From the IMG/VR virus record IMGVR_UViG_3300045988_161728: a stretch of DNA of 64,000 nucleotides; one strand, 5' to 3'. The position numbers and the translations under genes were made by a program. The notes under the pieces are model-generated. The model saw only the letters and a program-made list of their open reading frames with translations. It did not search any database and was not told the origin of the DNA. Source of the stretch: a virus (taxonomy: Duplodnaviria; Heunggongvirae; Uroviricota; Caudoviricetes). This document shows positions 48,255 through 48,320 of this stretch, piece by piece; position 1 is the stretch's first letter, and every line of letters begins with the position of its first letter.

Positions 48255-48271
48255 ATTGCTCTAATAATTCC
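48255..48271 (+). promoter_or_regulatory. C1-operator-like site
   Basis: ATTGCTCTAATAATTCC. Confidence 0.5.
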
Positions 48272-48303
48272 ATATTTTTAAAACGTGATGTACACTCATC
48301 ACG

Positions 48304-48320
48304 TTTTTTATTAGAGCAAT
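48304..48320 (-). promoter_or_regulatory. C1-operator-like site (inverted)
   Basis: TTTTTTATTAGAGCAAT; with 48255..48271 flanks the hairpin AAAACGTGATG-TACAC-TCATCACGTTTT. Confidence 0.5.

Follow-up and report, generated by a model that had tools for sequence, protein, structure and literature searches.

A putative terminator hairpin between two convergent C1 operators in the pmgQ-pmgR intergenic region of a P1-type phage-plasmid

The 66 bp that separate pmgQ from pmgR (48255–48320) are a genuine regulatory element under strong selection, and we consider it likely that they represent the control region of the pmgR-pmgS operon, overlapping the end of the preceding operon and including a hairpin that would serve as the upstream terminator. 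The operator pair and the promoter in this region are already known and have been present in the P1 and P7 records since 2003–2004. Added to these here are the near-invariance of the operators across 82 relatives that were retrieved independently, a previously unannotated hairpin that appears to be under selection as plus-strand RNA and probably acts as a terminator nested with the promoter, and a further -10 candidate that the loop of this hairpin may offer.

The 66-bp element and its genomic setting

By its sequence, the source of the window (the complete 64,000-nt stretch of viral DNA that was analysed) is a P1-type phage-plasmid. The 2.4 kb around the 66-bp site are 99.5% identical to P1 and 99.1% identical to P7, and the same segment is found at an identity of at least 98.5% in 19 P1-type phage records; the region is also present in 687 plasmid-collection records, mostly from Escherichia and Salmonella. 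The window is collinear with P1 at least over P1 positions 74000–93525, except for ~5 kb of extra DNA at 51285–56286. In a blastn search with P1 89800–94800, it aligned to P1 89800–93525 with 98.6% identity, and this alignment includes the 3' part of c1, the cognate C1 repressor gene (63706–64000, minus strand, truncated by the window end; identified by blastn and P1 annotation), so that both operators reside in a genome that encodes C1. The extra ~5 kb, which have no P1 counterpart here, fall in the pmgT-humD variable region of P1-like phage-plasmids and encode two Ead/Ea22-like proteins (51835–52560 and 52858–53415) and a DUF551 protein (53691–54578), along with several ORFs without a Pfam match.

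Every substantial ORF between 44953 and 52560 lies on the plus strand. The upstream transcription unit is closed by pmgQ (47552–48253, plus strand; stop codon TAA at 48251–48253), a 233-aa ORF annotated in both P1 and P7, the product of which matches the PHROG family phrog_1962 ('glycosyltransferase', E = 1e-127). Downstream of the element are pmgR (48335–48553, plus strand), a 72-aa ORF recognized from the P1 annotation and the literature (PMC9024508), and the second gene of the operon, pmgS (48555–49817, plus strand; 420 aa; P1 annotation and phrog_1660). The P7 locus differs in gene names only, with hdmD, shtA and shtB standing for pmgQ, pmgR and pmgS, respectively. The pmgR gene is essential, and its deletion results in unjoined heads and tails (PMC9024508); it was missed by a CRISPRi screen (PMC10695390). 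Among P1-like phage-plasmids, both pmgR and pmgS belong to the 21 genes with the highest conservation (PMC9603915).

The element reads ATTGCTCTAATAA TTCCATATTTTT AAAACGTGATG TACACT CATCACGTTTT TTATTAGAGCAAT. A repeat search delineated two nested pairs of arms, both 100% complementary: the 13-nt outer arms ATTGCTCTAATAA and TTATTAGAGCAAT (48255–48267 and 48308–48320), which are 40 nt apart, and the 11-nt inner arms AAAACGTGATG and CATCACGTTTT (48280–48290 and 48297–48307), which are 6 nt apart. The original prediction, made from the sequence of this DNA, of two inverted C1-operator-like sites that bracket a perfect hairpin between two plus-strand genes is borne out, given the 13-nt inverted repeat around an 11-bp stem and the plus-strand location of both pmgQ and pmgR. 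The proposed dimensions of the hairpin, a 5-nt loop TACAC with a 12-nt right arm, have to be corrected to a 6-nt loop TACACT with both arms 11 nt long. The assignment of the flanking sites to C1 also holds, the arms being identical to the annotated sites OpmgRa/OpmgRb of P1 and Op(sht a/b) of P7.

C1 operators and their conservation

According to a 2021 paper, P1 carries 22 C1 operators with the asymmetric consensus ATTGCTCTAATAAATTT (PMC8546580). With up to 3 mismatches allowed over its 17 nt, this consensus has 11 matches in the window against 0.25 expected, and at most 2 were obtained in any of 100 shuffles. Two of the 11 real matches belong to the element analyzed here: Op-a, i.e., OpmgRa or former Op86a (ATTGCTCTAATAATTCC, 48255–48271, plus strand), and Op-b, i.e., OpmgRb or former Op86b (ATTGCTCTAATAAAAAA, 48304–48320, minus strand). 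Each agrees with the consensus in 14 of 17 positions and is perfect in positions 1–13; the 3' end of Op-b departs from the consensus, with AAAAAA in place of AAATTT. At the site of Oppp (former Op83, upstream of pmgN; P1 79435–79451, expected here at 45538–45554), no match to the consensus with up to 3 mismatches was found, so the resemblance of this operator to the consensus must be weak in the window, as judged by the same search.

P1 has an identical 66-nt sequence, and the same element is annotated there (AF234172/AF234173), with the same position between pmgQ and pmgR, the same 17-bp sites and the same -35 and -10 hexamers. In AF234172, OpmgRa is described as a 'monovalent C1-controlled operator' that 'controls expression of pmgR and pmgS', at exactly matching positions, and OpmgRb, which 'corresponds to former Op86b', occupies the exact position of Op-b. 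The orthologous sites of P7 (AF503408), at the same gene-relative coordinates, are annotated as Op(sht[a]) and Op(sht[b]) controlling the sht operon. Both records label the two sites as 'phage repressor C1' binding sites, and it is in the form of this annotation that C1 binding is known here. The P1 record differs from the present reading in that the hairpin is not annotated, nor is it in the P7 record, and in that only one promoter geometry is given.

The two operators are separated by 32 bp (48271 to 48304), with a centre-to-centre distance of 49 bp (~4.7 helical turns). The bivalent operators of P1, such as Oc1ab (Op99ab), likewise consist of two convergent, inverted 17-bp C1 sites; however, these overlap by 6 bp and form a single 28-bp unit, an imperfect palindrome, whereas the members of the pmgR pair lie 32 bp apart, with the promoter core and the hairpin between them, and do not constitute a bivalent operator. 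Elsewhere in the window, two convergent C1 sites with a 6-bp overlap (ATTGCTCTAATAAATTTATTAGTGTAAT, 34197–34224) have the form of a bivalent operator.

The conservation of the operators was assessed in 82 P1-lineage loci retrieved via the PmgS protein and hence without selection on the operator sequence. Across these loci, Op-a shows only two singleton changes, at positions 16 and 17, and Op-b a single singleton variant, which amounts to 0.06–0.12 minor alleles per column in the operators; the corresponding value is 0.98 for the 3' end of pmgQ and 3.0 for the 14 nt that lead from Op-b to the start codon of pmgR. Within this highly variable 14-nt stretch, GGTG alone is fixed (48327–48330, plus strand) and is the probable ribosome-binding site of pmgR. 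These comparisons indicate that purifying selection acts on both operators. The six nucleotides adjoining Op-b (48321–48326) are the most polymorphic positions of the region, with up to 14 of the 82 loci differing per column, i.e., constraint drops sharply at the edge of Op-b, right beside the invariant GGTG.

The 66-nt unit is also kept in two divergent lineages, in which the flanks are only ~71–74% identical: Cronobacter phage JK004 with its relatives (L003, L112 and L144) and a group of Salmonella plasmids (L006 and L087–L090). Both 12-nt operator cores are intact in these lineages, with the exception of L144, where Op-a carries a single C-to-T substitution. Of 140 loci, 138 have a unit of 66 nt and 2 a unit of 67 nt, and the 49-bp spacing between operator centres is constant across all three lineages. 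A genome-contig search for more distant relatives yielded only two that are 99% identical, and scans of viral contigs, as well as a hairpin-pattern scan, recovered only the same three lineages. When metagenomes were scanned for any inverted operator pair 25–55 bp apart, 51 loci were found, all with the same 64–65-bp span, and all those for which the sequence was read proved to be the pmgR unit. Thus, the paired-operator architecture appears to be confined, in the sequences scanned, to the pmgR locus.

The variant of Op-b comes from a single locus (L034; IMGVR_UViG_2744054872_000006, ~1200–1265) and is a mutation in the operator core, which reads TTATCAGAGCAAT. This locus also differs in the spacer that follows Op-a and in the right arm of the hairpin (CATCATG, which leaves one G·U pair) and could act as a natural test of Op-b function.

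The pmgR promoter

The P1 record predicts a sigma-70 promoter, PpmgR, on the plus strand at 48256–48284, with the -35 element TTGCTC (48256–48261) and the -10 element TAAAAC (48279–48284) separated by a 17-bp spacer; with this geometry, transcription is expected to start near 48291, in the hairpin loop. The annotated -10 hexamer does not have the conserved final T, and a consensus promoter and terminator scan called nothing in the 66 bp. The arrangement is not peculiar to this site. Six plus-strand operators in the window, beginning at 14106, 15775, 30921, 34197, 48255 and 50396, are followed by a T-run and a hexamer of the form TA(A/T)NNN at operator positions 25–30, the hexamers being TAAGTC, TAAGTG, TATGTC, TAATAT and, twice, TAAAAC. 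The module of Op88 at 50396 (tgatttttaaaac) is nearly identical to that of Op-a (atatttttaaaac). The recurrence of near-identical modules at other operators supports the annotated geometry of PpmgR, and the conservation that extends beyond the 17-bp site suggests a common operator-promoter module.

Published RNA-seq data on P1vir (PMC8201110, Table S1) are available as gene-level log fold changes relative to time zero, not as coverage, and the values that follow are therefore indicative only. At 10 min in the wild type, the log fold change is 7.05 for pmgQ, 9.02 for pmgR and 9.99 for pmgS (6.23, 9.00 and 9.09, respectively, for dksA), with pmgL-pmgQ mostly at about 7 (5.4–8.0). At the same time point, late genes typically show 3–5 and the known C1-controlled early genes 8.3–10.4; the values for the early genes cre, ant1 and hrdC are 10.4, 10.0 and 9.4, respectively (PMC8201110). 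The step from pmgQ to pmgR and pmgS corresponds to a 4- to 8-fold rise in early transcripts and is located exactly at this intergenic region. Because their 10-min fold changes match those of the early genes, pmgR and pmgS can be grouped with the latter, as expected for an active early promoter between pmgQ and pmgR. At 30 min after infection in the wild type, the values are 11.66 for pmgQ, 10.81 for pmgR and 11.70 for pmgS (PMC8201110).

The hairpin loop itself offers another candidate. The hexamer TACACT (48291–48296, plus strand) could be an alternative -10 element, with TCCATA (48269–48274) as the -35 element at a 16-bp spacing. The form TANNNT is retained in all lineages: P1 has TACACT and one variant of its lineage TACGCT, JK004 and the Salmonella group share TATCAT, and L144 has TATTAT, so that all the changes fall on the three least conserved positions of a -10 element. 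Furthermore, relative to Op-a, the loop hexamer occupies positions 37–42 and the candidate -35 element positions 15–20, which is the geometry given in the P1 record for Olpa/Plpa (former Op94/P94), the promoter of lpa (gene 10) that is under the control of C1 and Bof. Plpa possesses a single operator without a hairpin and, unlike PpmgR, does not carry the label 'predicted' in that record. The -35 element TCCATA is weak. By analogy with Plpa, the TACACT loop may be the real -10 element of the pmgR promoter. Under either geometry, the predicted start site lies in or after the loop, at ~48291 or ~48303, which places Op-b at about +14 to +30 or +2 to +18, respectively.

Three other placements or types of promoter were considered and rejected. 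A minus-strand promoter at Op-b is not compatible with AGTGTA in the -10 position; for a promoter located before Op-a, with the hairpin then falling in the 5' leader, no usable hexamers were found upstream of 48255; and an Lpa-dependent late promoter is not indicated, the hairpin bearing no resemblance to the '-22 box' of LPpmgL and LP26 (TAGTCATTT and AAATGACTA, respectively, then 4 nt, then the -10 element).

The hairpin and the proposed working of the control region

On the plus strand, the hairpin (48280–48307; arms 48280–48290 and 48297–48307, loop 48291–48296) begins 26 nt past the pmgQ stop codon and folds with -13.4 kcal/mol, compared to -3.3 +/- 1.8 for shuffled sequences (z = -5.5; 0 of 200 shuffles as good). 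Its core stem CGUGAUG/CAUCACG, with 7 bp of which 4 are G-C pairs, contributes -8.5 kcal/mol when closed by the loop UACACU, and the A-U extension brings the value to -13.4. Directly after the core stem comes a T-tract (TTTTTTATT, 48304–48312, plus strand), which overlaps the 3' end of Op-b and is a putative terminator U-tail; the tail reads UUUUUUAUU (U6AUU). The consensus scan probably missed this hairpin since the stem, with its A-U extension, takes in some of the T-tract that the rule of the scan needs for the tail; under a dedicated rule for hairpins followed by a T-run, it ranks 11th among 24 candidates in the whole window. A search of 47900–48700 against Rfam (E <= 1) returned no fitting RNA family, the sole match being a miRNA family with 19.6 bits, where the gathering score is 211.

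A second terminator-like hairpin, TGCTGGTGGAGTGCGCCCACCAGCA followed by T7 (49839–49870, plus strand; -15.6 kcal/mol), is located 21 nt past the pmgS stop codon, before pap, and is a probable end of the pmgR-pmgS unit, judging from its structure and position. This strong terminator-like hairpin makes pmgR-pmgS look self-contained. It is also missing from the annotation of the P1 record, and given that the records omit even this stronger hairpin, the absence of the pmgQ-pmgR hairpin from them means little.

The hairpin is kept in all three lineages, i.e., those of P1, JK004 and the Salmonella plasmids. Among 18 distinct variants of the sequence, the 11 pairs are formed in 97.5% of the cases versus 39–72% when the 3' partners are slid by 1–3 columns, and neither the observed pairing nor the covariation score was reached by any of 500 shuffles. 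Two pairs have changed on both sides, from G-C to A-U (columns 31/48) and from A-U to G-C (columns 34/45), although this covariation rests on three lineages and thus on one or two evolutionary events per pair. Read as the plus strand, the 18 variants contain 13 G·U or U·G cells, and the JK004 lineage has two fixed G·U pairs, so that its hairpin folds with -14.0 kcal/mol as plus-strand RNA compared to -5.8 as minus-strand RNA. Counted as events, wobble-type changes compatible with the plus strand (~9) outnumber those compatible with the minus strand (~4), a difference that is not significant alone. In agreement with an RNA-level function, these comparisons indicate that the stem has been kept by compensatory change in the three lineages. 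The compensatory changes together with the G·U asymmetry argue for a plus-strand RNA element as opposed to a DNA palindrome or a bidirectional element.

Most likely, the hairpin is a Rho-independent terminator of the upstream operon, of moderate strength and acting on plus-strand RNA, and it probably ends the pmgL/pmgN-pmgQ transcription unit. As in enterobacterial Rho-independent terminators, a stem-loop and a U-tract follow shortly after a stop codon and the stem shows compensatory changes; the putative pmgQ-pmgR terminator differs in its short, 7-bp core stem and in that it overlaps a repressor site as well as the core of a promoter. Termination may be weak, the stem being short and AU-rich, and the similar 30-min fold changes of pmgQ, pmgR and pmgS, which are gene-level values, give no sign of strong termination. 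The transcripts that arrive from upstream have their origin, in the P1 record, at LPpmgL, P1/P2pmgL (with Op82) or PpmgN (with Op83).

We propose that the control region works as follows. The two monovalent convergent operators, OpmgRa and OpmgRb, bracket the predicted sigma-70 promoter. In the lysogen, occupation of Op-a by C1 would mask the -35 region and occupation of Op-b would place the repressor immediately past the start site, so that pmgR-pmgS would be silent. Once C1 is inactivated, the pmgR promoter is expected to fire early. The hairpin and its U6AUU tail would stop plus-strand RNA arriving from the pmgL/pmgN-pmgQ unit, the T-tract serving in a double role, as the tail of the terminator and as the non-consensus 3' end of Op-b. 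Since the left arm holds the annotated -10 element TAAAAC and the loop the alternative TACACT, a start in or after the loop would leave the left arm out of the transcript, so that transcripts from the pmgR promoter could escape termination, whereas upstream transcripts contain the whole hairpin and can terminate.

Several other explanations of the architecture can be weighed against the terminator reading. The original geometry was thought to suggest repressor-mediated looping, and C1-mediated looping or pairing across the 32 bp of intervening DNA, with the hairpin sequence as a flexible or bendable spacer, would fit the 49-bp distance between centres that is constant in all three lineages and the AT-rich spacer with its A/T tracts; Heinzel and colleagues are said to have described, in 1994 in J Biol Chem, looping mediated by C1 between the Op99 sites of P1. 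Such looping is nonetheless unlikely at the pmgR locus: at 49 bp (~4.7 turns), a loop bridged by protein would be very short and out of phase, the constant length follows already from the requirements of the hairpin and of the 17-bp spacer of the promoter, compensatory changes or plus-strand G·U pairs would not be expected of a mere spacer, and the P1 record calls both sites 'monovalent'. That the inner palindrome functions at the DNA level, as a binding site for a dimeric protein or as a cruciform, seems quite improbable even though it is perfect on both strands in P1 and in the Salmonella-like lineage. In the JK004-like relatives (L003, L112 and L144), the palindrome is broken at two positions that are still G·U-paired in the plus-strand RNA while the minus-strand fold is down to -5.8 kcal/mol, and the T-tract and the placement 26 nt past a stop codon are what is expected of a terminator.

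An attenuator or 5' stabiliser in the leader of the pmgR mRNA, with transcription starting upstream of 48280, would account for selection on the hairpin as plus-strand RNA, and the pmgR promoter is only a prediction; still, we regard this explanation as very unlikely given that promoter-like hexamers with usable spacing are missing upstream of 48255 and that both candidate -10 elements set the start in or after the loop. The least probable explanation, and one to which we attach hardly any weight, is a regulated terminator/promoter that acts in both directions, as originally suggested. With its symmetry and a 5' A-tract, the P1 hairpin has the shape of bidirectional terminators, but all substantial ORFs between 44953 and 52560 are on the plus strand and nothing converges on the site; the minus-strand tail is UUUUAAAAAU, only UUUU and then A's; Op-b has AGTGTA where the six plus-strand operators, Op-a included, have TA(A/T)NNN; and the minus-strand hairpin is not conserved in the JK004-like relatives. 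With the neighbouring genes, the minus-strand tail, the hairpin and the promoter module all unfavourable, the bidirectional part of that suggestion is not supported. What survives of it is a regulated promoter that is unidirectional, backed by the PpmgR prediction of the P1 record and by the early RNA-seq rise at this position, and a terminator that is plausible for plus-strand transcripts coming from pmgQ.

The terminator reading could be taken further, to a nested insulator, a 'promoter inside a terminator', in which transcripts from the pmgR promoter start within the hairpin and escape it, while C1 bound to Op-b, a site that shares the U-tract with the terminator, acts as a roadblock through which upstream read-through would be fully terminated in the lysogen. 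We regard this extension as doubtful; if true, a single 66-bp unit would shut off pmgR, an essential head-completion gene, at two levels. In general, the findings are of little importance beyond tidy annotation and open no new question. If the hairpin does terminate transcription, pmgR-pmgS would be a self-contained, directly C1-controlled early unit with terminators on both sides.
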